From assembly GCA_000934665.2 (NCBI GenBank), contig KZ538128.1:1-64000 (forward strand): DNA of 64,000 nt. Direction: 5' to 3'. Below, one piece after another: positions 4,348-61,420 of the stretch. The stretch comes from Catajapyx aquilonaris (lineage: Eukaryota). The notes beneath the pieces were generated by a model. It had not been told where the DNA came from and made no database searches. It saw only the letters and a program-made list of their open reading frames with translations. Numbering within the stretch: the stretch's first letter is position 1; every line of letters begins with the position of its first letter. Position numbers and translations under genes: made by a program.

Positions 4348-6434
4348 TATTAATTAATTACTTAATTAATTTTTCATTCATTCCTTCATGCATTCATCTG
4401 ATTGTGATCATCATGAGATTAAAATTAAATAGTGCCGTAGGCTTAAAAATGGGTCGATAGGAAAATATGATTACCAGCTTCTATTCACTCGAGCTTTTTT
4501 ATAGTTCAGTTTGCTGTAGGTGTTGATAATGGCATTTATCAGGATGGAAAGGAATTTCATCTGACGGAACCCAACTTCTATTCTTGGCGTTTGATTGGGA
4601 GTGCAGTAGGGATTCTTCGGCATCGGCAATCCACACACTCTAATAGCTTTATGGTCTAAAGTAATTGCATTTCCCCCGGGAGACAGGATCCAACAGAATT
4701 TCTCCCCGTTGCATCGCTGCATTTACGCTTTAGGTATCCAAAGACCATAAACGACACGTTTTGCTAGGTCGAATACACTGTAGGAAACTATAAAGTTGAT
4801 AGTCTTAAAGATGATGTGGTGGGTTTTTCGTCTTTCTCAGTGCTAACATTAGACCTATCCATTCTCTCAACTTCAACTCTGGAGACTCTGGAGACCTGTA
4901 AAGTTTTTGGAAGAATCCCCAACACGATGCTAGTAGCATTTTGTTAATATTAAGAAAAACTCATCTTACAGCTGCACAGTATATTGTTCCTATGTGAATG
5001 TGACATATATATCCTCGGGTATCCTCCACTGTACAGGTGAAGCCGAGCGCATAACTGTCAAAAGATATGTTTGAGTTAAAGAGATCAGTGAGTCAAGTGA
5101 AATCAAAAATCAAACCCGCAACAGTCGTCTTGATTTCGACCATCACCTCACAATCACAAGAATTGTGATTCGGAAATCACGGTAATAATGCCTCGGACCA
5201 TTTCGACAGTGAACGGAAAGAACGACAGTTCAGCATGCACTAAATTACTCCTGCATTATATTCCAACATCGTGCGTGTCCTCAATTTTTCTAAATATGTT
5301 CATATGTTATCTGCATGCTTCTGGCAAATTGAGTAATACAACAGAACGTAATGGCTCACATGCGTGTTTCTCTTACACACGTTATTTCAAGTGAAACCGA
5401 TTTGATAAAAGCGATGGGTGCATGTCATTTCATTTTGTAAGAGTGCCGTTAAAAGGAACATTTTTAACCACGTAGGTAGGAACAGTGGACAAGGAGCCTG
5501 ATTTCAAATATGTGGTTTTGCATTAGAAGGTTCTCATTTCTGGGCAATGAACTCATACTGGAGCCTGCAGCAAAAGAGCCTGAATGCACATCAGAATGGA
5601 GAACTTAAATATACTGTATAAGCCACATTGGATTGTCAGATTAGGCCTACTCCGTGCTGCGCCCTTTGTGGCGAGCCTGAGGTCAAAATGGCTTGTGCCT
5701 TCTGCAAAAGGGTCGTTAAATCCAGTGCCTTCAGAATAGGCCCATATGGTGCACAAATGTGCACAAAAAAGGTGCGACACTTTCGACACAATGGCCTATA
5801 TACTGTCACATGACACACAAAAACGTATCAGATAATCTCGTCAACGAGTTTTGTGTCAAATGACACAAATCATGTGTCATTTGATATGACACACTGCATA
5901 TATCCTAATTCTGTTCTGTGAAAAGACATGCCAAAATGATTGTGTCAAGTGACACACGTGCAGAAGGATGGAAGGGTGACGCATGTAGGCCTATGCCATA
6001 GAGCACACAAGTGTGGTTTTCTGCGGCAGAATGTGTCTCTCGACTCGTATTTTTATGTCCTATACTGTAGGCTACGTTTTACCATGCTATGCTGTTGTTG
6101 AATAATTATTGAACGCCAAAAAATGTAGATTCGACTGATAAATGCGGCCAATCCATTTTGAAGCATTTGCAAACGACATATAATGACTGATGATGATGAC
6201 CTAATAATGCTTAATAGTGGTTCAAATGCAACGTAACCTGCAAATGCCTCCGAATTTGTCGGTCACTTGAACGGAATTCACTCGAGACTCGACATAATCT
6301 TGTTGAAGAGGATTAAATGAATCAACCGATTACTCTCATCAAACTGCGAGGATAATATAGCTCCACTTGCAACAAGTAGTTTTTCCCCCGACAACTGCAA
6401 TCCACCATGTACTCTATTAACCCTCCTGTGCCAC

Positions 6435-25200: not shown

Positions 25201-28098
25201 TTATAAAGATGGAGTGTGGCAGTTGCTTTCGAGAATTGCAATAAAGCAGCATTTTTACTCCAAGCCCTCCTGCACACAAAAAAATATAGTGGGATAATCA
25301 AATATAGCCTGCTCCACTCAGAATTTGTTTTTCATCCAAAATTCTGCGAGCAGTTCAATTATCCTGACCGTGTACCAGACGCCGTGCTAAGTTGAAAGTT
25401 GACAACTTTTGAACCTATCCCGTTGAGCCCTTTCATTATAAATTAGCTATAACCCTCAGAGGGCACGGATTTCAGATTATGGAGATGTGTGCCTACAACC
25501 TTGACCTTTCCGGAGGGAACGTTCCTATTAAGTACATTTAAAAAATGAATTGGCCTACCCCTAAGCCAAACTTAATCACCAGCATTGAACTCCAAGGGTG
25601 TGTAAATCTTGAGCATGTGAAAAGTGGACCCTAGAGCTATTCAATACTATGAAAGTTGGCAAGACGCCCACGTCTCCTTTTGGACAGGAAACTATGGTAG
25701 GAATTTCAAGCTTGGAAAGTTCCCTTCTTTGTATGGACGCAGTGCAGTGGGTGTCAAAAGGGTCAGACCAAGTCCATTCTGCCTTCTAAACTAGGCCTCC
25801 CACTTTGCAAGGGATCCAGTCTCATTTCCTAATTGACACCATGAAGAAGCCGACTTTCGTATCGGCCACTCATTATAATTCTGGTGAGCATGCACACCGT
25901 GAGTTGTGAGGTGAGGAGAAAGCCCTTTAATTAAGTCTGAAGACTGCAAAGTCAGCCGTAAGATGGCATAATTATTGTGGTCAGGGCATACGGAAATTGG
26001 TCCTCACAAAGTCATGTTTGCAACCCACAAAGTGCTTGACAGCAGTTGACGTACAAGTATTCCTCCACATCAGTCAGCGATAGTCTAAAGTGCATAGACT
26101 TGCAGGGTTTGGTATAGTATGAACAGCTTGAGGCGAATCTTGAATATCTGGTGATGCGGACACTGACGGAGAGCATAAAGTAAACAGAGGCAGAATGCTG
26201 ACTCAGCAAGAAAATACCTTCCAGCAGCAGGGATCATGCCATCATTACCGTCTGAAGGAAAAGCTACGTATTTGAGAAGGGTTATCTCTATGAGAGGAGT
26301 TAGTTGAGGTCCTGTTATTCTCAAAACTTCCGCGGAGTCCTACGGGGCACCGCGGAGCACAGTTTGGGAATCACTGGACTATAGTGATTCATATTAGCAG
26401 AGAAAAATGTCCTTCGTAATTCCAAATCAGGCACTCTCCTGATGATATTTTTTTGTGGAGTGAACTATATAGGTTTCTTGGTTTTTATTGTTGCTGCGTC
26501 GCCCCCGAGAACGTAGTAATTATGTTATGAATCAGGTTCTATTTTCAGCCGCTCTTTATAGTACATTGGTGTTAACTTGGGACAGATTGTTCCCCGAGCA
26601 AAAAGCACTGTACTAAGGTTTCTGCTGTGGGAGAGATTTAATATGGTTAGATGAGGCTTCCTAATCTCTCAACTAGGAAATTGCCGGAAGAGATTGTTAT
26701 TTTTGTGGGGCTTGGGGAAAAGTGAAACTAGGTCTGTGCGCTTGGCCTACATTTGTTACCAGATGCAGCTTCGGTTTTTTCTTTCACATAGTAGTCAGCT
26801 TAAAATGCAGGAAAACTGTCGTCATCCCGGAAAAAAGGGCCGAGAGTGTTGCAAGTACCCACGAGAATTTCAGACAAGTAAATAATCTAGCGGCTTGGAT
26901 ACTTTATCTACAGTATCACACGATTTAGTGTCGAAATTTAAATTTAATGGATGTATTTCATCATTAGAATGTACTAAGGCTTATCCAACGAACTGCGTTG
27001 AAAATATCTACGATTTTGTAATGTAAAAAAGGTCAATGTATATAGGCCTACAAAATTTTGTGTGCAGTACAGTCATGCACGATTAATCCGTAAGATTTAA
27101 AAAAACAGGGACGGACTGTACCGAATATTGATTGGACTCTCTGTAATGTACTGCCTCCAGGGTGACACGGTTGGAAGAACCAGAAGCTGCAATTAATTAA
27201 TTGCAAACTATGAGATACTTTGCATGCTTCTGCTCCCACCGTGGGAGTTTTGATGGGTGGGGTCGATTTTCCCATGTCGGGGCATACTGGAATGGTAGAG
27301 AGGATAAAGTAGCGGACTAATATGCTCTGAAATAAGGAGGACATCCGTTCTGGGTTGCGCTATATGAAACGGGCTTCTAAGTAAGGATTAGAGTGGGATA
27401 AGGGGGGTCAATATGTGTCCTGTCAATCTATCAGTTCTTCGACCAGTTCCATTTTAAGACGAAACTTTTGAGGGTTTTCACTGGGTGACTCAATTTTGTA
27501 CGATGTTTTCATAAATAACAGAGTCTAGCTTGTTATGCATTCAAGCAAAATTCTTTTCACCATATTCTATACTTACTCCTTCAGAGGCAAGTGCACCGTG
27601 TATGACATTACAACGATCAAATGGGATAATCATTATGATTCTGATCGTAATAACACATTTTTGTTGGAAACCACAATACAGTACGGTACAGATTTATGTA
27701 GAGTTTACTGATTATAACGTTGAGTAGTGCCCTTTTATTCCAACCTGCAAGAGTGGTCGATATTGTGACGTGACCTATCTGCTCATGCTTATCACTTGGT
27801 TCATGTTCATGCATTTTAGGACACGAAGAAATCGCAAATTAGTGTTGGCACTTTCATCATCCTTAATGTAAAGATTGCTTTTGTGTTTTTCCCCCACGCC
27901 TTTATGAATATTATACGGAATGAAAGAAACCCAAACACTTTTGGGATGTGACTGAATGTGTCCGCATCTTTCTGCTATAGTGAAACGTTGGTGAAACCCT
28001 TTATTATAGCAACATTAAGACTCTTTCACCTCCAGCCCAAGAGATGTCCGCGCAATAGGCGTCCTGATCAAGAACCCTTGACGACGACAATCACCATC

Positions 28099-28440
28099 AT
28101 GGACAATGAAGGCACAAAGGCCAACAATACGAAATCGCCCCCTTCAATCGTAAAACAGCCGGAATCCAGCGCTGGCGATGAGACTCCCAAGCGACAAAAC
28201 CCATTCGACAAGGAAGAGGCGAAATCCGAAATTGAGATGGAAATGAAGGAAGAAGATGCGGGGGAGGACAAGGTGGATTCGGCTGATCCGGTTCCGGAGC
28301 AGCAGCAAGTGGCGGAAAAGCCATCAGAGGGAGATCCAAGCAAACCTTGCGCCATTTACTTCGGAGTCAAGAGCTATCTACATCACTTCTACGAGGTCGT
28401 TTCTGTCAAGAACCCTAACCTTTACGAGGAGTGCTCGCAG
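28099..28440 (+). CDS. NRSN1: Neurensin-1-like (Vmp), first coding exon
   Basis: MDNEGTK...YFGVKSYLHHFYE matches the neurensin GVRSYLHxFYE signature; acceptor at 28035 upstream; phase-0 donor cag|GTGAGT at 28441. Confidence 0.9.
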
Positions 28441-29212
28441 GTGAGTGTCTGTCCAACCTATTTTGCCTAACAGGTGGGTGTTGCTGTCATTAGTGGTGCG
28501 AGGTGCGTGGGTGTAGACATAGGCCTAGATTAATGGCAAAGATCATTGCGTAAAGAGCATCGTATAGGATGGGATTGAGAGAAGGTGTAGTATCAGGATT
28601 GTCAGAGAAAATGTTGGTTCAAGTGCTGAAACTATGATGACGTAGATGGCTACAAACATTATTTTTTGTTCCTCAAACAAGGAAACCCACACGCAGCACC
28701 TCAAACTGAAATATTTGCACTGCTTCCGAGCGATTTACGTCAGAGTCCACGTCATTACAGGTGGCTTCCTTTTTACATGTTAGACTTGCATTGGTCCAAG
28801 AGATATTAGCTGCTGATAATGCCCTAGCGTTCTGACTCACCTTGTATAACAAAAATAGATATCCATGCTGCTATAAGCTGGAGAACGGCTGCAGCTTATT
28901 ACCATATGGAATTTAGCCCGACCATAGCCACAACTACAAGCGCTATCAGCACAACCTTGAGCATGAAATGTGCTATTGTGCTTGCAATGCTGCTTACAAG
29001 GGTCTCCTTGAAGTCATTCTTTGCAACAAAAATAGTAGTCTACTTTTCTCATGCTACATGCAATGTTGTATGTTGGTTGTTTCCACGATACTTACAGTGT
29101 ACATGTACATGTAAGTCCCCTTTAGGTTCTATAATATTCATGCAATGACTAGCAGATCAAAAACGTATTTTTCTCTGATACACGATCAAGAAAATATTAT
29201 TTGTACAATGTC

Positions 29213-29905: not shown

Positions 29906-30275
29906 TAGTGAGGCCTCGTTATCTGCCGGTAATTGATTCCAACCCCCCTCACCTGCGGATAATACCTAACTATATGTATAATGTACAGTACCTGTGTACG
30001 TTTTTAAAACATATATCCACCAGTAGTGGGAGTAGTGGCTATATAATTATATAATATAACATACGTACTTACCTATGATAAGTTTAATTTTCTAATTATA
30101 TAGGCTTCATTAAGACATGTTGTACAAAAACAATTAACTCAAAAATAAAATAGGAGAGTTACAACACAGTGTTCTACATTTTTAAAAAATTGTGACATAT
30201 TTTTTAAAAATTTAATGTGTTTTTTCAATTTTCAAACCGCGGATAACGAACCCGTGGATATATGGGGGCACACTG
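29906..30275. mobile_element. pogo/Tigger-type MITE, degraded
   Basis: Shares ttatc..cggtaattg, atgataagtttaatt and aaacc.cggataacga with 11931-12369. Confidence 0.6.
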
Positions 30276-31700
30276 TAAAAATATTATATAATATTTTTCC
30301 TGTCCTCAAAGATGACCACATTCAAGTCTCAATATTCCAATACAGTAGTCTATTATATTTCACATCAAATCCATCGCATTGATTTAAACAGTTTTATATC
30401 AGTATACAACGCGTTGAAATATAACAAATATTTAACGTTCCATGGGCCTCATGAGCAAATTGGTTGCCAGCAGAGTAATCTTGTGCCGCTGCATTGCATC
30501 TAGAGCTATTGGTTAAGTGCCCAGCATAATCGGGAATGAAACCCTCTTGTGAGGAAATTGCACAATTGGAACGCGATGTGTCACAAGCAACGGAAGCTCT
30601 CCTCTCCATTAACCTAATCGCTAACGCGTTTAGGCGAATTGTGATAATCTAATTACTCCGTCAGAGCCGGAAACGTCAACTACCGTACATGAATGCTGCT
30701 GAAACAACTTTGGTGGATGTTTCCCCCCTCCTCACCCTTTGAATACCTAAGTAAACGGCATAAACTAACATTTGTAATAGTTCTAAACAGACGAGCAATA
30801 TAATTAACTTGTAAATAATTCCTCCAATAATTGTCTCCCAACCTTCCCCAAACTAACGTTTCACGTCAAAGCCACCTTTCGGAAAGTGCTCCAGGCATAA
30901 CTTTGCATCAAAGCACTCTTCTTCCCACTCTTTGTAGCCAAGTGTATTCTTCTAGTCGCAAGCTCACAATCTCCAGCATTTGCAAATCTCACGCGTATAA
31001 ATCCCCGAGGGTAACTCTAAAATGACTCTCAAAGAAGTTTTCGCGTAGTGCAGTATATACAGGCGTATTGCAAGTAAAAAGACCACTTTGCTCTTTCCCA
31101 GAGTGCGTCTTCGGGCGCATCAATATTTCTAGTTGAGCGAATCTCCAGAGTTGGCGAACCTTATTCCGAAGGATTTTAACGATTTTCTTTCGCTTTGATG
31201 CCGATACGCTACATGTATATACCGTATATAAAAGTTTCGGCCAATGTTATCATGGCGCTCAACAACCGACAGCACTCTAGCAATATGAAACGTAGTAAAA
31301 ATAGTCACCTTGCTAGATTGCTGATTGGTTCTCGTATAGCGCTAGGATACGTTTCACCGAAGCTGTTTTGGGTAGAGTAGCCTATACCATTCAAACTGTC
31401 GACCACAGCGATACGGGTGTTATGAGTTTACGACCAATGAATACTGGCATTTCTAATCTCTCGCAAATGTGGTTACTTGGTGAATTTCATTTTTCTGATT
31501 AATGCGGGAAATAAAATAGATCGCCTTCTGACAGTTATACCTGAAGTGGAGTAGTGGGAATTGAAAATATGCTCCTCAATAAATTACTTGGACATTTCAA
31601 AATATGACTTATCAACTCCAATATTAAAGGTGGCCAGCTTTCCGTCCGGTCCAGTTCATTCAGCTTTTCACCACCACGTGGCGCAAGTGAAAAGGAATAG

Positions 31701-31770
31701 CATCATCCTGCATTCCATACTACCCGGCGAACAACCATGTTCGCCGGGTAGTATGGAATGCAGGATGATG
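31701..31770. repeat. perfect 70-bp hairpin
   Basis: 33-bp perfect inverted arms with a 4-nt loop (acca). Confidence 0.9.
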
Positions 31771-32593
31771 GAATGCAGGATGAATCGGTATCCGGAGTTT
31801 TCCGCGATACCGTGACAATTTCGCCCCCGGCAGTTCCGCTGGTGACGCCCGGGGAATCGTGTGGAATGCTGCTCCTATTGACATTAAGATCGCTTTACAT
31901 TACTTCCTGCTGAATTACCATCAGCGTTTAGCCTGATCTAGGAATGTCGTCATATTCCACCATAGGTCTTCTGCTCGTACTTGGACTGTTCGTACCCATA
32001 GTCTTCAGCTTGTACTTCAAAGGACGTAACACTGAACGGGCAATCAGTGTAAACACAACACTCAACAACAAATAGGACACACTCCACTCCAACACTAAGA
32101 GTGTCCTTCTTTCCTCCACGGACTTGGAACCCATAGTTGAGAGCGAATACACATGCAACGGTAGTAAATGCGTTATGCAACCAAAATCGTCTCAAATTGG
32201 TGGGGTTTGCAAATCCCCAAACCAACAATCCTCCAAAACGTATCCTCCCCGGCCTTGGGAGATACGTAAGCAAGGACGCGTCCGTCCAGGAGGAGGCCGG
32301 TATGACAGGGCTTCCAATGGGCCAGTTGCCTCTTTTCCAGACAAGCTGGATGGGAACCGGTAATGAGTCCGGCGGGGGTTAATCAAACTATAAAGGTGTG
32401 TGTAGCAAGGTACACACCAATGTAGTGAATGCCCGTACTGTACATACTGTATAACATAAATGGCCACAGGCTCCTTAAGAGTGGTAGGATCTCCTTGGGT
32501 ATGATGAAGTCGTCGTAAGTCCTCCCCAGCAATCTCGCTCTTGGTTTCAACAGAAATCCAATGCAGGGGAATTGTTCGGGACTTCGGGTTACA

Positions 32594-35500
32594 TCATGTC
32601 AATTCCCAGAGGTCTGCTGTTTTCTGCTTGGAGTCCAGTCGCTCTTTCCGCAGTATTTGTTGTTCTTTTTTTGATTTTTTGCACCCTGTATGACCTCTCC
32701 TATTGTGACCCTCATCGCCTTCTTCCGCCTCAAATTGTTGGGGTTGTCCTCTCTTTCTCATTTGCCTGGTTTCAATAATTCCCTGCTCCCAGTACTCTTC
32801 ATCAGTCTTCTGATAGGAATTTCTCTTGGGGGCATACTGCTCCAGGTATTCCAGCCTTTTTGTCCTCCTAAGGACATCCTCGGCTGCATTCCACCTATTA
32901 GTTGATCTGTATTCAATTTTCAGCACATCATTTTTCTTCTCCAATGCTAGGGAATGATAAAGAACTCGGCTGCACTGCAATGCCGGGTCCAACCCAGGGA
33001 CGGGGGTGGGATATTCTCCCAAGCACCCCGTCCGACCAAGGAATGCGAGTCAGGTCCGAGGACCGCTCGAGTAGGAGAGTACTCGCGCTGGCGAACCAGC
33101 CGGGACCTCCATTGGGATATTCTCCCAATATCAGTAATATATGTGTATACTTCACACGTCCCCTTCCAGGGTGCCAACAGCACTTGTGACCAAATGCGCC
33201 ATTTCTGCCATGTATGAGGTGAGCTAAACTATGTAACATGCAATGTAATAATTATACTGTACAATAGAACAGTATCATATTTTGTGCGGCTAATTATTAT
33301 CATAGCACCACAATCTCCCATTACGTTGCAGTGTTCCACATACCTTGAGAAGAAAAACGGCTGATATTTCCAAAATTTTCAATTAGTTCTCCTAGATGAC
33401 TGCCGACGATATGAATGTGTGGAGTCACCCGGGCCTTTCCGTATCCCTGTCGGATATCGCCCAGTGCCACAAACTGTTCTACCCAGTGCAGTGTCTCCCT
33501 GCCAGTGCAGTTGCTCCTGCCGATGCTCCAGCAATGACATCGTACAGTTGCCCAAAGTCCTGTCATCAAGAAGATGAAAAGATTAATAATAAAACAAATG
33601 ATAGGATTATGTTGCTTATTAACTGCTCTTTTTATCACACACTTCTTGCCTTCTACCTGCCTCAACGTTTGTGCGACACAGAATCTAGGGAAAAGTTGAA
33701 GAATTGACTAGGATAAGGGCTCATTCACACATTCTCAAATGTTACTAGCAGCGGTTTTTTTTTATCCACCTCGTGCAATTTTAAGGCAAGAGGTATTTAA
33801 GGCTCTTATGACATCAGGAGGTGAAGAAAAACATGTGCCAATGATGCAGTGAGATAGCAGCCATAGCTTTCAAGGGAAAAATATCATGATCTTTCAATAA
33901 CTGTGACACATGAACCTTTATCCAAGAATGGCCAAATACATGGTCTTATTTATTGGGCAACATGGGACCTTCTCCACAGTAATATGCAAAAGTTGTGTCT
34001 GTTTTGTTTTGTACTCTTTGATGAAGGACTTTTCACCTGTGCACTTGAGCCATTATCCAAAATCCTCCCCATGCCTGACTATTCGTTTGGGCAGTATTTT
34101 CTTGTGACTACTGCAGGTATCTTTTCACCTTCAGTGGTCACATATACAAGAGTCCTTACCAAAACAACTGACTTCCACCAAAAAAACACAACAATGTGAC
34201 ACCTTTTCCAACGCCAACTCCAATTTTCAAATATGCACCTTGAGACCAATAACAATTCAGGTATCATAGACACACAATTGAGAATGTTAGTTTAACCATC
34301 CCATTCCCACCGATGCACACATACATGGTGTAATGTCATATTCACTATGTTGTAATCTAGGGAGTATGTGTCCCACAAGTTTGTCAGTTACTGTGATACA
34401 TTTTATTCTGGTCGCTTACCTTCCAGAGGGTGATGACTCCCTCGCTTGTGCTATCGGATATGATGCCTGGAAGGTGGCTTGGTAACTTATCCAGCAGTGT
34501 GTCACAGTCCTTTCCTGTAGGTGAAAAATAAATTTGAGTTCACATGCTCCACAAAAGACTTTCAACACCATCTCAAAGTTTCTTACCTGACAACGTGCTC
34601 CACTCTGTTTTGCCCTTCTGCCCAGAAGTGGTAAAAAATCTGATGTGGATGCCACATTTTCCAATAGCACCAGCAAGTTTCTGTAGTACTGTTTCATCCA
34701 CTGGAGAAGAGTCCTCACTTCATTGTGCTTGTCCATTTCTTCGCATTCAAAGGCAAGGTTCTCTAGCAGACGGTCCACGATCCTCATCTTCATGTGGAGT
34801 GTGTCCGCCACAATAGCCTGCGGCTCCACATGGAAAATTGGCAAATGTTTCACACCAGACGTCTCAGTTACATAGTCATTTTTCATATTGGAGAGATTTC
34901 TTTTGTGCGGAACAGTCGCACTTGGGCAGGTCATTCACAGGCAATCACTTGTCACAGTACAGTACTCGTACATACACGGATGCTTGCTATTGGCACTTTT
35001 TAAACCAGCCACAATCAGGAGAAATTTCATGTCCCCTCCGAGTACTATTTTCATCTTCACAAACCGGTCGACAGGATTCCTTAACCAAACTCCTCCATCT
35101 GCAATTATTTTGTTCACTTCTTCTGCCAATAAAGTGGTGGCTTCTTTCACTGCTGCATAATTTTCACTGTGTTCCATGATCATGGTGGTTTTATGTGTTT
35201 TCACAGATTGCATGTTTGTTGAGCCGTCTAAAACAAAATTCACTGCTGTCCAGTTCAGTCCATAGCTGTTCATTCTGATACCATCACCTTCTAGTTTCAG
35301 AGTAATGGTTTCTTCCCTTCCGACCATGTTTTTGTGGCCACATAGCTCTTCCACCGAATCGACAACAATCTTCATCACTGAATCTACAGTTTCTCCTGCA
35401 ACTCTGTCCTTTAACAATGAGATATTATATTGCTGGTCCACATATTCCTGACAAGATTGCAGCAAGGACCACTTTGGAATTTGTGACATGGTGCTCAAGG

Positions 35501-36737
35501 ATTTCCAGGCATTTTGGCTTATGTGGCAGCTTTGTTAAATGTGCATGAAGATGAAAACTAGATTCTTTTGATTGAGCGTCAACATGGCAAAATCAGAGGT
35601 TCCTGATATGTACAAATTGGGCTTCCCCTTAGAAACGGTCCCCTTTGCTGGGTTTAGAGCATAAGTACGTATCATTTCCCCCTATGGATATGATAATCTC
35701 CCGCAAGTCTATGCCAAATGAGTCAAGAAAATAAAGGCACGTGTCTGTCATTGTCATCACTTCCTTCAGCTTCAAATATCTCTGTCTTGCCTAATTCTCC
35801 TACTTTTTTCCTCTGTTCAGCAAGGAAAAGTCGCTGCCGGGGCCAGGCAGCCCCAATTTCTCAACTGTAAGGTTCAGTTCCTTGTTTCTTGCCTTAAGGG
35901 CTTCCTTCTCCTTCACAGTTTTGTCAAGGGTTTCAATAAGTGTTGCGATGTTGGGGTCTTGTAGTGCTACTGTCAGGCTGCCTGCACTAACACATGAAAC
36001 CTTTGCTGTTGTGCTTCTACAATACCCTACAAAAGAGTACTCCTTCTCTAGGAACGAATATTTCCCCTTCCCTGATTTCTTCTTATACAGGGTGTATCTG
36101 AACTCAGTGCCCCGACGTATATGACTGCCTTCCTAGCCACCAGAGGATCGATTTAAGTATAGGAGTCATATGTGTGGGCAGCCTCATTACTGAGATACAC
36201 TCTTTAGCGATTTTTGCCTAATCGCTCCTTCTGACTTTTAAATAGAATTTTCTGGTGTAACTAGCCAAAGAGGCCTTACCACCTGTGGGCAACAAACCAA
36301 CAAAGTCCCGCCCCCAGACCTTCCAGAGCCTTCTGACTGGGGGAGGGTCCGATGGGTGGCCTAACCGACAGGATATTTTGTACTACATGTTTGCGGCCAA
36401 TTATCTCCGTAATGAGGCTGTCCAGACATATGACTCCTATACTTAAATCGATCCTCTGGTGGCTAGGAAGCCAGTCATATACGTCGGGGCACTGAGTTCA
36501 GATACACCCTGTATATTTGCTCTTGGCGATGTTGGCATTCATTTGGATTGTGGTTTTCATGGCGTCAGAAAATGTTATGTTCAGGAGGCTGTTCAATGCT
36601 TCATCAATAGCAAAGCTTTTGCGCCTGCAGGCATTTTCAAGCTGTAGCAATGTCCTACACTTCATTTACACTTTTGCCTCACCTTCAACTATGGTTAGGG
36701 ATATCTCTTCTTTTATTGAGGAAAGTTCTCCCTCCAT
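32594..36737 (-). pseudogene. decayed, spliced RAG1/Transib/Chapaev-type DDE transposase
   Basis: Motifs in order: LKLEGDG (D 35283-5), SENY, GGDMKFL (D 35031-3), GLKSANSKHPC..YC, DTLHMKMRIVDRLL, EWSTLSG|KDCDTLL..TLWK|DFGQLY, VTPHIHIVGSH, FSSQ|ALEKKND (E 32939-41). GT-AG introns 34586-34515, 34419-33560, 33343-32947. Contains stops, frameshifts and a MITE insertion. Confidence 0.85.
36088..36511. mobile_element. Tc1/mariner-type MITE inserted in the transposase ORF
   Basis: About 85-bp TIRs beginning CAGGGTGTATCTGAACTCAG; TA TSD. Confidence 0.9.
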
Positions 36738-36767
36738 GATGTGAGCAACCACTAAACTTCACTGATT

Positions 36768-37236
36768 TTAAGGGCAAGCCTGTCTAGCAATTATTAGATG
36801 GAGGCACTCATGATGGATGCACTTGGCACCGACATTTCCCACACTGCTGTCCTTCTTGAAAACTTTCCTGGCAACCCGCACTCCACTTTTCATCTTCAAA
36901 GGAAAGTTCACCTTCCTACCGTCCCCAAGTGAATTGAACACAGTAAACCACTTCTCGGGAAGCTGTAGGTCTTCGAAGTCTTCTCCTTCATAGAGGCGCC
37001 AGCCCTTCCCAATTGGCTGGCCTCTGCTACCAAAGAGAATCATCAAGACATCCTGGCGGAGACTTGCCCTGATGGCCCCTCTATCTTGCTTGTGACTTCT
37101 GAGTCAGGCCTTCTATCACCAGGTTTAAGAACACCTCCACTCCTTCATCCAGCAGCTCCCGGCTCACGTTTGGGTACAAGTTACTCTTCTTCGCCGTGGT
37201 GACTCTCTGGTTCCATTTGACGAGGTACTTCTTTCC
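36768..37236 (-). pseudogene. chromodomain-like accessory ORF remnant adjacent to the transposase
   Basis: After acceptor ctcaacag: GKKYLVKW..., then a stop/frameshift, then RQDVLMILF...GDGRKVNFPLKMK; YLVKW is the chromodomain core motif. Confidence 0.5.
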
Positions 37237-37432
37237 CTGTTGAGCAATTACATAATGAAATTTTTCATAATAATGGAAAGTGGTGGATTGTTTAGAAATG
37301 AAAGTAGAGCTCGTGTCAGTGCTGGAAAAATGTGGAGGCTAATTCTGCTGCGCAAGATTGTTACAACAAAGAGAGTGAAAAATCCTATTTCTTTTCTTCT
37401 CAGTAGCCTACCAGTAATAATATGTAACTCAA

Positions 37433-37836
37433 AAGGGAAGTGTAAGTGTTGTCAGTGGAGTTGCTGAATGAAACTTGCCACAATATTATAGGCAAGTAAG
37501 TTATTAAACAAAATGCAGAGGTCAACTCTTATATGCCGAAAACTCACCGATTTTCTTGAAATTCGGTGCATTGGTAGCCCCAAAAAAGGGGTCACCAGGT
37601 TATTTTGAGCAGGTCACTTTAGGTTTTTCATCCCTTGGGGTGGCCTACCAATGTACCGAATTTCAAGAAAATCGGCGAGACCTTGGAAAGTGTCCCTTGT
37701 GAGTTCAAGAGGTCATAACTTTTGACCTTGTGGGCATCCGCCTAAATTGTTTGCATTTTCTTTAATAACTTACCTGCCTATATTATTGTGCCAAGTTTCA
37801 TTCAGCAACTCCACAGACAACACTTCCACTTCCCTT
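37433..37836. mobile_element. foldback/palindromic MITE
   Basis: Outer inverted arms of about 85 bp plus inner arms ctcaccgattttcttgaaattcggt / accgaatttcaagaaaatcggcgag. Confidence 0.75.
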
Positions 37837-38017
37837 GTCATAAAAGAGTCCTCCCATTGGGCATCTGGCCCTCACGGGACGAAAAGCTGGCCACGAACAA
37901 CAGTGTATTGCGTACCAGCTCTTACATTTACTGCTATAGTCCTTGAACAACATGATTTTACCCAAACATCCTGCTGTGTAACCGCGTGCCACACTCCAAA
38001 CTAGCCCATTATTATTT

Positions 38018-38269
38018 GAGGGGTGTGGTGGAAAAAGGCGATAACCCACAAAAGTGTAATTTTTCAGGAGAGCGAATTCAAGTTTGCACTCTCTTCACAA
38101 ATCATAGGGAATGCTGGTTTTGATCTAGACCGTGTTGCCGTCTCGTGCATGATACGTGAACTTGGAGTATACCAAACTGTTTGTCATGTCTTTTACATAG
38201 TTGAGCCTAGGTGTTTAGGTCAAAAATGACAAAATTGTCAGCTTATCACCTTTTTCCACCACACCTCTC
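38018..38269 (+). mobile_element. Sola-like MITE, copy 1
   Basis: GAG...CTC termini; TIR ggtgtggtggaaaaagg; 4-bp TSD ATTT. Confidence 0.8.
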
Positions 38270-39718
38270 ATTTTAGACTGTTCGTATAGTCCCTTCTCCG
38301 GAAAAGAACACCACTGGTCTGCCACTGGTGTATTGTAGTAGGCTTGGTAGTAGGCCTATTGCTATTATGCCGAAGCTCTTTGTAAAATAATTTATGTAGG
38401 ATACTTTTATTAGTCCTAATAACATTGAATGTGCTCTAATATAGGGGAAACATCACAGGATACCATCTTGTATAGCCTCTACTTATACAGTAAATCCAAA
38501 TGAGTTTCGATTTTTTTGTTTGAAAAAAAGGATTCCATTTTAGAGGCGACAGGTAATTACAAATTTTGACCTAAGACATTAACCTTATCTGCTCTACTCC
38601 AAGACACTGCGTCCAATTTATGGCTTGTTTGGACTTAGCCGGTCCCTGAGAGCCCTCTCGAGAACATTATTTTCGACCGGATGGGCCGGGATGGGCTCAT
38701 ATGCAATTTAGGCTCCTGTAAAAGATATAGTATGAGGCAGCATAAATGAATATGCACACACCAGTGTATTCAGTATAACAGCAACAGCCAAGGAGGGCAA
38801 CATAATGTATAACTTAATAATTATAATTACATTGATCCCATATAATCCATGAGTAGGGCTATATTGCTAAGCGTCTCCCTAAATCGAAACTAATTCGCCG
38901 ATAAGTATCTCAAGTGACTTTCGTATGAGCTATTTAAGCCCTTCCTTATATACCGGTAATTGCGCATATCGGAAAGAATTGGTATCGCCTACTTCCATGA
39001 ATATAATAGCCTATTCGTAAGCCCTATAATGGGGCCCTACTGGCTTCGGAAATATCTACGCTTCCATCGATACCAATATTATTAAGGTATATCCTTAAAA
39101 TGTTGACATTAACTTCCCGAAGACCGACAAATGTAACTCAAGAAATGTGACTCAGTTTTCGTTGAGCACAAAAATGACGGATCCTCTTTCCGCCGATAAA
39201 TATGGCTTTGCATAGCTGTCCCATTCTCCCCATTGCAACCTGCACACCTGCGTTCCAATTTTTTTAATCCGCCTAGGGGCAATCCTGGGGGAGAAATTTA
39301 ACCCCACAAAGCCGAAAAGCGTGACTTTATTCTACCTGTTCCCTGTCGTTTGATAGACCAGACGAGGCGACACTCACGTACAGTAATTACCCAAAATAAC
39401 GGAGATTAGTGAAAGTTAATTACAATTTGTAATAATCTTAATATATGATTTCGACAATTTTAGACAGGTTGGATGTTCTATTTTATATCTCGAGAGTCCT
39501 TTGCCAGATCGAAATAATAAATTCTGATATACTTCACGAAAGAGTTGGCTTGACTGCACATCGTTTCTGGTATTTTATGTTTCTTATCTCTTATTTACCA
39601 ACAATAGGTTTTCTGGTATTGTACTGTACTTCATAAGTGAGTAATTTACTGTGGTTTCTAACTTTAAAAAGAGTGGCCTAACATTACTTATAAGTACAAT
39701 TTCTTTTCAAATCTTCAG

Positions 39719-40195
39719 ACTGAAGACTACCACTACCTAATCCGACCTCGAAAACGGAAATGCAGCTCAGCATGGTTCAAGGTAGGACTGGTGGTCGGGG
39801 CCAATCTTCTGATCTGGGGTGTCGTGGCCATTCTGGTAGGCTACGTAGTACCACGCCGACAAGTGGTGGTAGGCTACGACCACGACCTGGAGATCATAGA
39901 CCGGACCGCCCTGAAGTTCAACACTGATCTGGAGCTGTGCAAGTTGGCTGGCCTCATCCTCTTTTGCGTCGGAGGGATGGTCACCGTAGTCACCCTTCTA
40001 TTTCCAACCTTCCTCTACAGCTACTGCGACGACTCGGTCACCGTCGAGCCGTTTCGAGTCAGCATCAAGGAAGAGTTCGTGCCACGGAGTCCTACCGACA
40101 AGAAGATACCGGTCACTGAACAGATCAAGACTGTTCAGCCCGTTTGGGAAAAGAGTAGCCTGGCTACTAAAAAAGGCCTGGTTTCGTTTCCTTAA
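39719..40195 (+). CDS. NRSN1: Neurensin-1-like, last coding exon (two TM segments); protein about 272 aa in total
   Basis: Acceptor ttcttttcaaatcttcag, phase 0; TEDYHY...WFKVGLVVG..GYVVP...A.KFN..L..CKLAGLILFCVGG matches the neurensin TM region; TAA at 40193-5; AATAAA at about 40349. Confidence 0.9.
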   Translation, partial: TEDYHYLIRPRKRKCSSAWFKVGLVVGANLLIWGVVAILVGYVVPRRQVVVGYDHDLEIIDRTALKFNTDLELCKLAGLILFCVGGMVTVVTLLFPTFLYSYCDDSVTVEPFRVSIKEEFVPRSPTDKKIPVTEQIKTVQPVWEKSSLATKKGLVSFP

Positions 40196-56471: not shown

Positions 56472-56768
56472 CTGCATATGGATCAAAATATTGGGTTAGA
56501 CACCATCATACAGAAGGTCAAAATTTTACATGAATTTATTAGAGCATAATTCTGAAGCGCAGGCATTGAAATGTCATTTGCTCAGTAAACTGAAAAAGGG
56601 CTTTTCTTTATCATAATGACAATTAAGAAATGGGTGGAGACCTAATGAACAAAGAGGTAGTTTCATTACCTGTAATTAGTTACCATTTTGAGTGCATTTT
56701 TATAAGTACGTAATTACAAAATTATTTTGAGCTCGATATTGTTAATATTTACTGATAGTATTACATAC

Positions 56769-57292
56769 CTCCACTTTGGCCGCCAGTCCACAAGTTCCTT
56801 GTAGTTGCTAGGCACTTCTTCCAAGACAGGCGCAGCAAGAAACGAAATGAGCATGGTGTCGTAGCCCATCGAGATGATATCCGAGAAGACCCACCAGAGG
56901 CAAATGAACATCCGTGCAGTGTTGGCTGTAGGAAGAAGGTTCGGGTTCTCTTCCACCAGGGTGGAAAACATGAATTGCATAGAGTAGAAAAACGAGTGGT
57001 CAGGGTAAGTGCCACTTCCCTTGAAGGGTTGCACCACAAAGGCATTTAGAACCCTCAAAATGCCCCAGAAGAATAAGGTAGCCAATACGCATGAGGCCAA
57101 AATGCACATCCACATATCAGCTGTATAAGGTTCGATGATGGACTTCCATGAATAGAGAGGTCGCTGACGATGAGTTATCATGGTGACGTACCCTTCAAAA
57201 ATGGCTCGTGGGTATTCGATCACTGACTGGGGTGGATCAAACATGATCGTAGGACCGCTGAACGGAGCTCGGTCGTATAGAACTTCTCCAAC
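56769..57292 (-). CDS. divergent IR, exon 4 (end of S1, M1-M3)
   Basis: VGEVLYDRA..PYTADMW..TARMFICLWWVFS..YDTMLISFL; GT-AG boundaries in frame. Confidence 0.9.
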
Positions 57293-57531
57293 CTGAGGAA
57301 TATATTATAATCGGATTGTGTGTGAACTATACTGTATAGCTCAAAAACATTGAAATTATTTTGCGTTGAAGCGAAATTTAATACAGTCTCAATCTTTTTG
57401 AGCGATAGAGTCCAGTACATGTCAAAGATTATAAAAGCTGCAGTGCTTTTCCTATGCCAATGTCTCTGATGGCTCTTTCACAATAATTGTAAAAGAGCCA
57501 TCAGAGAAAATGGTATAGGAAAAACACTTAC

Positions 57532-60003: not shown

Positions 60004-61420
<1,417 letters not shown>

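Follow-up and report, generated by a model that had tools for sequence, protein, structure and literature searches.

What left the broken, minus-strand reading frames that lie within an intron of a neurensin gene of Catajapyx aquilonaris? The window, the whole stretch of DNA analysed here, comprises positions 1 to 64,000 (64,000 nucleotides) of contig KZ538128.1 in assembly GCA_000934665.2. An earlier note on this DNA had placed an intron-containing, RAG1/Transib/Chapaev-like transposase fossil at 32594–36737. We find that the fossil is very probably a dead, low-copy, two-gene, cut-and-paste DNA transposon, antisense in the neurensin intron, with a transposase of the CMCT clade (to which RAG1, Transib and Chapaev belong); the element probably spans ~31630–37894. 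The coordinates given earlier fit the transposase gene, but the unit reaches farther: to a second gene that extends to ~37330, and to a candidate inverted repeat at 31630–31650 and 37874–37894.

To identify relatives, the two largest minus-strand frames were read through (with an X at the single stop) and compared with a database of 1.84 billion representative proteins, 281 of which match at E≤1e-3. The top relative is P0002 (826 aa, E 8.4e-33, 34% identity), and many of the matches are 700–860 aa long. (Here, P-numbers denote database protein relatives, and L-numbers denote the 53 related loci on contigs.) A family profile (A1, 741 positions) was built from 36 near-full-length relatives and run over the six-frame pieces of the window. 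It matches eight minus-strand pieces in collinear order, covering about three quarters of the profile: (i) 35803–36132 (profile positions 72–157; a weak, N-terminal match at E 0.67), (ii) 35632–35790 (positions 176–210, E 0.015), (iii) 34938–35534 (positions 249–433, E 2e-38), (iv) 34419–34934 (positions 450–518, E 2.6e-19), (v) 34576–34719 (positions 519–559, E 4.3e-5), (vi) 34387–34539 (positions 556–589, E 7e-4), (vii) 33324–33707 (positions 612–665, E 1.2e-15), and (viii) 32597–33049 (positions 663–731, E 2.4e-12). The coding region of a protein of ~830 aa is thus present over its whole length in the window. The SAP-like C-terminal tail of the transposase family was not found in the window. 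Single-sequence searches with the window frames gave no Pfam or PDB relative, and a word-based search for longer proteins gave no match; with the A1 alignment as its query, this kind of search yielded only 4 proteins.

Each of the motifs listed in the earlier note can be read on the minus strand. These are the first D (in LEGDG; codon 35283–35285), the second D (in GGDMK; 35031–35033), the Cys pair (34974–34976 and 34959–34961), DTLH (D codon 34803–34805, H codon 34794–34796), H-x4-H (33411–33413 and 33396–33398), and the E of ALEKKND (32939–32941). The Cys pair needs a qualification: both cysteines are present, but their spacing in the window copy is C-x4-C, as opposed to CxxC in the family.

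To what are these motifs related? When the profile was searched against all PDB sequences, RAG1L and RAG1 took each of the 16 top places among distinct sequences (E 1.6e-10 to 0.0023). The top match is amphioxus RAG1L (6b40; E 1.6e-10, profile positions 415–693), zebrafish and mouse RAG1 match at E 5.6e-10 to 1e-7, and everything below RAG1/RAG1L is coiled-coil noise over the N-terminal region. Two further profiles (of 150 and 9 sequences) again match only RAG1/RAG1L in PDB. Among proteins of solved structure, the profile hence has meaningful matches only in RAG1 and ProtoRAG RAG1L (6b40, 3jbw, 4wwx), which share its motif order. In the alignments, GGDmKF..G..A.S.Y.C.wC of the family is paired with G.GYDEK..GLEASGS.YICTLC of RAG1, DeLH with DATH of RAG1L, and TPYmHilvyHvpe...fsgQglEklN with T.YLHKTLAHVPE...ASEGNESGNK. 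The second D, CxxC, DxxH, H-x4-H, and E of the family profile thus fall on the corresponding RAG1 motifs, which we take to hold D708, C727/C730, H937/H942, and E962. At the level of profiles, the earlier reading thus withstands the refutation test set in the earlier note, with the first D falling outside the aligned stretch. Among the 36 relatives, D370, D451, C470, C473, and H532 (P0002 numbering) show no variation, conservation of H682, H687, and E707 is 90% or higher, and the full D-D-C-C-D-H-H-H-E pattern is seen in 32. According to PMC12730594, two Cys and three His residues mark the CMCT clade (EnSpm/CACTA, Mirage, Chapaev, Transib, RAG1). This signature is present in the family, and the window copy has all of its residues (the Cys pair as C-x4-C).

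The transposase gene consists of four minus-strand exons. Exon 1 (34587..36737), supported by profile pieces and by tblastn of intact relatives, holds a coiled-coil-like N-terminal region, both D residues, the Cys pair, and DTLH. Exon 2 (34420..34514) is matched by piece (vi) above; exon 3 (33344..33559), with H-x4-H, by piece (vii); and exon 4 (32594..32946), with the catalytic E and the stop codon (32594–32596), by piece (viii). The three canonical GT–AG introns that had been proposed to join the fragments are borne out: intron 1 at 34586–34515 (72 nt; junction LSG/KDCDTLL), intron 2 at 34419–33560 (860 nt; donor immediately after L-W-K), and intron 3 at 33343–32947 (397 nt; junction FSSQ/ALEKKND). 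All three junctions are seamless against the profile of 36 relatives, with no profile positions gained or lost. As had also been claimed, the codon of the catalytic E lies just past an intron (the edge of intron 3 is at 32947); because the residue sits behind an intron, annotation based on open reading frames would miss the fossil.

Several lines of evidence bear on whether these gaps are introns or later insertions. Firstly, the intron 2 donor position is, by eye, common to distant relatives on metagenome contigs (L022/L025, L048 and, seemingly, L034; GT after L/I-W-K/Q), and further canonical introns occur at common places in L022 and L048. Secondly, the genome has another, diverged copy of the element, contigs of which include parts of introns 2 and 3; for intron 2, this is a contig over 33680–34025. 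Thirdly, a single frame runs across nearly the whole profile in 5 of the 53 loci. The shared donor, the second-copy intron sequence, and the intron-less relatives together show that the gaps are introns, and the occurrence of uninterrupted loci beside intron-bearing ones indicates that the family has members of both kinds. Introns 1 and 3 were seen in none of the 53 loci. Three further observations concern gene structure. Within intron 3, ~32968–33174 is a high-copy stretch (depth 1,000–3,900) without a tRNA or Rfam match, where the second copy has a different 213 letters. The transposase copies of L044 and L001 are 95% alike and differ by a 611-nt insertion (L044 5696–6306) with ATGAA on both sides, which looks like a later insertion rather than an intron. 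Finally, the transposase N-terminus is on a separate upstream exon in some relatives (L004 419–670, L019 1571–1891, L010 647–1051), that of L010 being ~700 nt upstream of the main frame.

The window copy has been extensively damaged. The transposase gene contains five in-frame stops, all in exon 1 (36666–8, 35800–2, 35791–3, 35535–7, 34935–7), and three frameshifts, as derived from frames and profile coordinates: two in exon 1 (near 35680 and near 34702) and one in exon 3 (between 33559 and 33500). Exon 1 is also interrupted by a miniature inverted-repeat transposable element (MITE) at 36088..36511 (424 bp), which has 114-nt inverted arms that are 96% complementary, and TATA on each side. We compared DNA contigs from the source species (one sample of three runs, plus one small run) with window positions 30001–40000 at 80% likeness. 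Among these contigs is a MITE-free form, in which 36083 is joined to 36512, with 428 nt skipped and 4 shared letters; this joint marks an empty site. By reading of the sequence, the halves of exon 1 share a frame once the 428 nt are deleted. A second MITE (37433..37836; 85-nt inverted arms; depth >10,000 in the DNA contigs) lies at the 5' end of the gene 2 remnant described below. Given these lesions, the transposon copy is dead, and none of its parts can work any longer. A third, MITE-like element lies at 38017–38270, with 28-nt inverted arms; the summed contig depth of the three MITE-like elements exceeds 10,000, compared with ~30 for unique DNA.

Does the transposase gene stand alone? Directly upstream of it, on the same strand, lies the remnant of a second gene (gene 2; 36768..37330, minus strand), the stop codon of which (36768–36770) is 30 nt ahead of the transposase ATG. 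A tblastn search with the window frame 36771–37103 finds 20 of the 53 loci (E 5.9e-14 to 8e-4); conversely, a profile of 16 partner exons matches the same window positions at E 5.9e-20. This profile matches 30 of the 53 loci, and the partner is present in 24 of the 32 loci that have at least 1 kb downstream of the transposase. In relatives, two more conserved partner exons lie farther upstream on the partner strand, and the partner donors and acceptors are canonical in the loci examined (L003, L010, L002). The middle exon encodes a chromodomain: Pfam Chromo (PF00385) was detected in all 12 exons tested (E 6.6e-11 to 2e-5), in 11 of them above the Pfam cut-off of 25.1 bits. The gene 2 piece in the window is intron-less, and consists of the N half of the chromodomain (..YYEKFHYVIAQQGKKYLVKW) followed by a 140-aa domain; the second chromodomain half has been lost, and there is a frameshift near 37085–37100. 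Pfam Chromo was not detected in this piece, which keeps only the N half.

The domain encoded by the last partner exon (~140 aa) has a confidently predicted alpha/beta fold (predicted local distance difference test, pLDDT, 93.2; predicted template modelling score, pTM, 0.82; 14 sequences). Its profile has no match among PDB sequences or Pfam. Searches with the model gave no Foldseek match in PDB at E≤0.001 (best E 0.057), no VIA-align match at Z≥5 among 48,161 chains (the best being an R3H domain, Z 3.8, root-mean-square deviation 4.2 over 72 residues), and no match in BFVD at E≤0.001, although a missing match is no proof of a new fold. Are the two genes inherited together? The pairwise identities of the last partner exon and of the transposase C-terminal part correlate (rho 0.54, 12 loci; 5 of 2000 label permutations reach this rho), which fits inheritance as one unit, though related loci share history. 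In P0145, the partner domain is fused in front of transposase pieces, and hence a co-directional arrangement like that of the window exists elsewhere too. No chromodomain partner for CMCT-type elements is described in the literature searched, which did not include Repbase Reports, such that an earlier description is possible.

Where does the element end? The earlier note had reported that neither terminal inverted repeats nor a target-site duplication could be found. As regards the first part of this statement, a candidate terminal inverted repeat of 21 nt is present at 31630..31650 (beyond the transposase 3' end) and 37874..37894 (beyond gene 2). The two arms pair over 19 of 21 bases, the repeat occurs nowhere else in the window, and none of 100 shuffles gave two matches. 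The second part, on target-site duplication, still holds. Between the left arm and the transposase stop lies the non-coding 3' part of the element (31651..32593, minus strand), where frames are without a Pfam match and contig depth is above that of the flanks. Some features of this part were recorded separately: (i) a perfect palindrome at 31701–31770, just within the candidate element end (33-nt arms, 4 nt between), (ii) a depth of ~4 times that of unique DNA over 32005–32338, and (iii) a summed depth of ~1,750 over 31671–32004 in the small run (X5). The stretch 31671–32338 may be another repeat or a gene-family fragment inside the 3' part of the element. Among the related loci, L010 has an inverted repeat at 147–169 / 5362–5384 (21 of 23 bases), and the start of its gene 2 adjoins one arm. 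The contigs of most other related loci probably do not extend far enough to include both ends. The termini might be read as CAG..CTG, with GC on both sides, in the window and L010, but in both the complementarity continues outward. The candidate ends of the window and L010, which are themselves uncertain, show no CAC..GTG termini with a 3–4 bp duplication (the Chapaev type). A shared end motif, GCCAG..TTCC in the window and L010, was dropped, being found 7 times in the loci against ~4.9 expected.

The DNA contigs also give an indication of copy number. The flanks, 30001–31662 and 38244–40000, are single contigs without differences, at a depth of ~30, while depth in the interior is about twice that of the flanks. 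Extra contigs cover 32661–32968 plus 33174–33358, 33680–34025, and 35077–35391 (~87%, 90%, and 98% likeness, respectively), and in one contig 31960 is joined directly to 34101, which we read as a copy with a deletion. The depth of each contig form is close to that of the unique flanks, and so we infer that the divergent forms are paralogous copies rather than alleles.

A number of observations weigh against the reading of the fossil as a two-gene transposon of the CMCT clade with these limits. In the window, gene 2 precedes the transposase gene and runs in the same direction, but in all 30 loci matched by the partner profile it follows the transposase, on the opposite strand (convergent). The 53 loci include near-duplicates (L031/L042, L026/L027, L028/L030, L022/L025), and hence the locus counts overstate independence. 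No target-site duplication lies beside the candidate inverted repeat; the candidate ends are GTGGCC..GGCCAC, where CA..TG with a 2–5 bp duplication is usual for the clade. One second-copy contig stops matching at 37368, within the proposed element, which makes the right boundary uncertain. Both flanks are available for 18 related loci, and among these a flanking inverted repeat exceeds shuffles in L010 alone; no common terminal motif emerged when copy boundaries were compared among loci. Lastly, the first D is not covered by the stretches that HMMER aligns with RAG1, and no HzTransib chain was found in the PDB search with profile A1 at E≤10, or with the two other profiles (A2 and A4) at E≤10 or E≤1.

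Could the fossil instead be what remains of one or two host genes that were domesticated from such a transposase and have since become pseudogenes? Spliceosomal introns, a low copy number, the missing target-site duplication, and clear ends in only one relative speak for a host gene. Set against them are the additional diverged copies in the genome (two or more, the deletion derivative among them), the inverted repeat that flanks the unit, and the nature of the relatives, of which single sample sets contain numerous copies, diverged from one another and often broken. Position also speaks against a host gene, because the fossil lies antisense inside an intron of another gene. Frames with Pfam Neurensin matches flank it on the plus strand, at 27952..28470 (5' of the fossil; weak, E 0.0032, profile positions 2–29) and at 39668..40195 (3' of it; PF14927, E 2.9e-25, profile positions 13–122), and neurensin exons on the opposite strand at both sides put the fossil within a neurensin intron, in agreement with the earlier note. 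We therefore consider a host pseudogene improbable and retain the transposon reading.

Next is the question of which transposons the family belongs with. The window copy and its relatives could be members of Transib proper, or of the RAG-like (RAG1L–RAG2L) transposons, and thus close kin of the RAG1 ancestor. Pointing this way are the PDB matches, which are to RAG1L and RAG1 alone (to E 1.6e-10), and a protein atlas, in which clusters of RAG1 RNase H / pre-RNase H are the closest neighbours of the 199-aa window frame (score 0.95). Yet identity to RAG1 is low, and single family sequences mostly fall short of the Pfam RAG1 cut-off. The catalytic part of 17 full-length members gave no Pfam family at E≤0.01 (DUF1280 included). 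Among 114 further members (E≤0.05), Pfam RAG1 matches 14 (best E 8e-6), while DUF1280 is about equally frequent (11) and scores better (best E 3.2e-7); DUF1258 has one match, and Transposase_21 none among the matches listed. According to PMC3985635, DUF1280 denotes Chapaev transposases, in one clade with RAG1, and DUF1258 denotes Mirage. In the atlas, P0002 is nearest to a nematode cluster, 51% of which carries DUF1280 (score 0.91). Two relatives, P0013 and P0192, carry the precomputed Pfam accessions PF28175 and PF28422, which may be recent Pfam entries for the family; our own Pfam scan of P0013 gave neither.

The partner gene also separates the family from RAG-like transposons. ProtoRAG and RAG1–RAG2 consist of two convergent genes, and most relatives of the window copy are likewise convergent two-gene units. 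RAG-like transposons have a RAG2-like partner gene, and RAG2 combines a kelch propeller with a PHD finger. However, the gene linked to the family transposase does not encode a kelch partner of the ProtoRAG type, but a small protein that combines a chromodomain with an unrelated 140-aa alpha/beta domain. The transposases differ at their N-termini as well: RAG1 has a RING / N-terminal zinc finger, while the family lacks these and has a coiled-coil-like region. Transib belongs to the same clade by its Cys/His motifs (PMC12730594). Against membership of Transib itself, no recombination signal sequence-like end with a heptamer-like CAC, and no 5-bp duplication, was found, and there was no HzTransib match with three profiles, a negative that a distant relation could also give. 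A 2026 preprint makes the case that such features of the ends vary within Transib. Overall, close kinship of the family with Transib or RAG-like transposons is distinctly improbable.

Chapaev is the third candidate name. The Chapaev signature, as given in PMC4079192, consists of C(2)C, LH, and H(4)H, and all three motifs are conserved in the family; moreover, DUF1280 is the best-scoring Pfam family among the members and marks the atlas cluster nearest to P0002. Chapaev also has an N-terminal Chapa zinc finger, which the family lacks, as judged by composition rather than fold: 33 of the 36 members have no CxxC ahead of the first D, the family alignment has no conserved Cys/His columns in the N-terminal region, and the upstream exons of L004, L010, and L019 are not Cys-rich. 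Chapaev3 elements are described in PMC3014272 and PMC4079192 as 1.8–2.3 kb, single-gene elements with 485–561 aa transposases, CAC ends, and a TWA duplication. By comparison with that description, the family has a transposase of ~830 aa, a partner gene, and units of >5 kb. Given the lack of a Chapa finger, a size and gene number that differ from Chapaev3, no Transib match, and a partner unlike the RAG2-like one of RAG-like transposons, we place the family in the RAG1/Transib/Chapaev neighbourhood, but do not file it under any of the three names. The earlier proposal of a poorly characterised RAG1-related lineage is hence supported as regards homology to RAG1, while membership of neither Chapaev nor Transib could be shown.

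As for the relatives themselves, those that are named are all annotated as "uncharacterized" or "hypothetical", and come from Ixodes scapularis, Rhipicephalus appendiculatus, Mytilus, Dendronephthya, Desmophyllum, and Paramuricea. In a FastTree phylogeny of 88 cores (270 columns; all 88 passed the threshold of ≥180 aligned residues per row), the window copy splits off first, on a long branch, within a clade that also holds P0002–P0007, P0168, and P0170, tick proteins included (FastTree local support 1.0). A chance order of motifs in unrelated open frames has a practically negligible probability, being refuted by the 281 database relatives and by collinear profile matches that reach E 2e-38.

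How might such a transposon have worked? Two-gene DNA transposons with an accessory gene include PIF/Harbinger, with its Myb-like open reading frame, and CACTA, with TnpA. As in these elements, the family combines a transposase with a second, non-catalytic gene, but its accessory is a chromodomain joined to a domain without a clear structural match. In the intact ancestor of the window copy, gene 1 (36737–32594, four exons) would have encoded a DDE (aspartate-aspartate-glutamate) transposase of ~830 aa, of the RAG1/Transib/Chapaev/CACTA-Mirage clade, and gene 2 (~37330–36768) a small chromodomain protein with the 140-aa domain at its C-terminus. RAG1 and Transib nick DNA and then form a hairpin on the flanking DNA. 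In the same manner, the intact transposase may have bound the inverted ends and cut and rejoined DNA, with the element released via hairpins on the flanking DNA and then joined at a new site. Judging from its chromodomain, the partner could have bound methylated histone tails, steering or licensing the reaction, and its C-terminal domain would contact the transposase or the element ends.

The surroundings can be described briefly. No tRNA and no Rfam family was found in 31000–38500. Elsewhere in the window, the minus strand carries an ionotropic glutamate receptor-like gene (56714–57304, with neighbouring frames to 58495; Pfam Lig_chan, E 1.1e-11), and a long array of ATG/ATA triplets lies at 60650–60860, the open frames of which give poly-D/poly-N or poly-H/poly-Y.

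Two elements of this account are new here: the candidate 21-nt inverted repeat, and the chromodomain partner gene upstream of the transposase. The locus itself is of modest interest, as an inert, ordinary transposon fossil in a neurensin intron. Of wider interest is the family behind it, which the comparisons support as a two-gene lineage, related to RAG1 and little charted so far. It is through RAG1-like transposases that the origin of V(D)J recombination is traced, and the known lineages close to RAG1 are few. A more specific proposal, which we put forward tentatively and regard as somewhat doubtful, is that the family is an undescribed RAG1-related lineage of cnidarians, molluscs, ticks, and Catajapyx, in which the transposase has a dedicated chromatin-reader partner composed of a chromodomain and a 140-aa domain of new fold. 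If true, this would parallel the way in which RAG1 works with RAG2 and its histone-reading PHD finger, and would suggest that a RAG1-type cutter and a histone reader were paired either more than once, or before RAG. Since intact, multi-copy members exist in corals, mussels, and ticks, the family could be tested at the bench. In its linked chromodomain partner, it offers a separate instance of a RAG1-type transposase associated with a protein that reads histone marks. Should this association be functional, it would be relevant to the need of RAG1 for RAG2, and to the choice of targets by elements of this kind.

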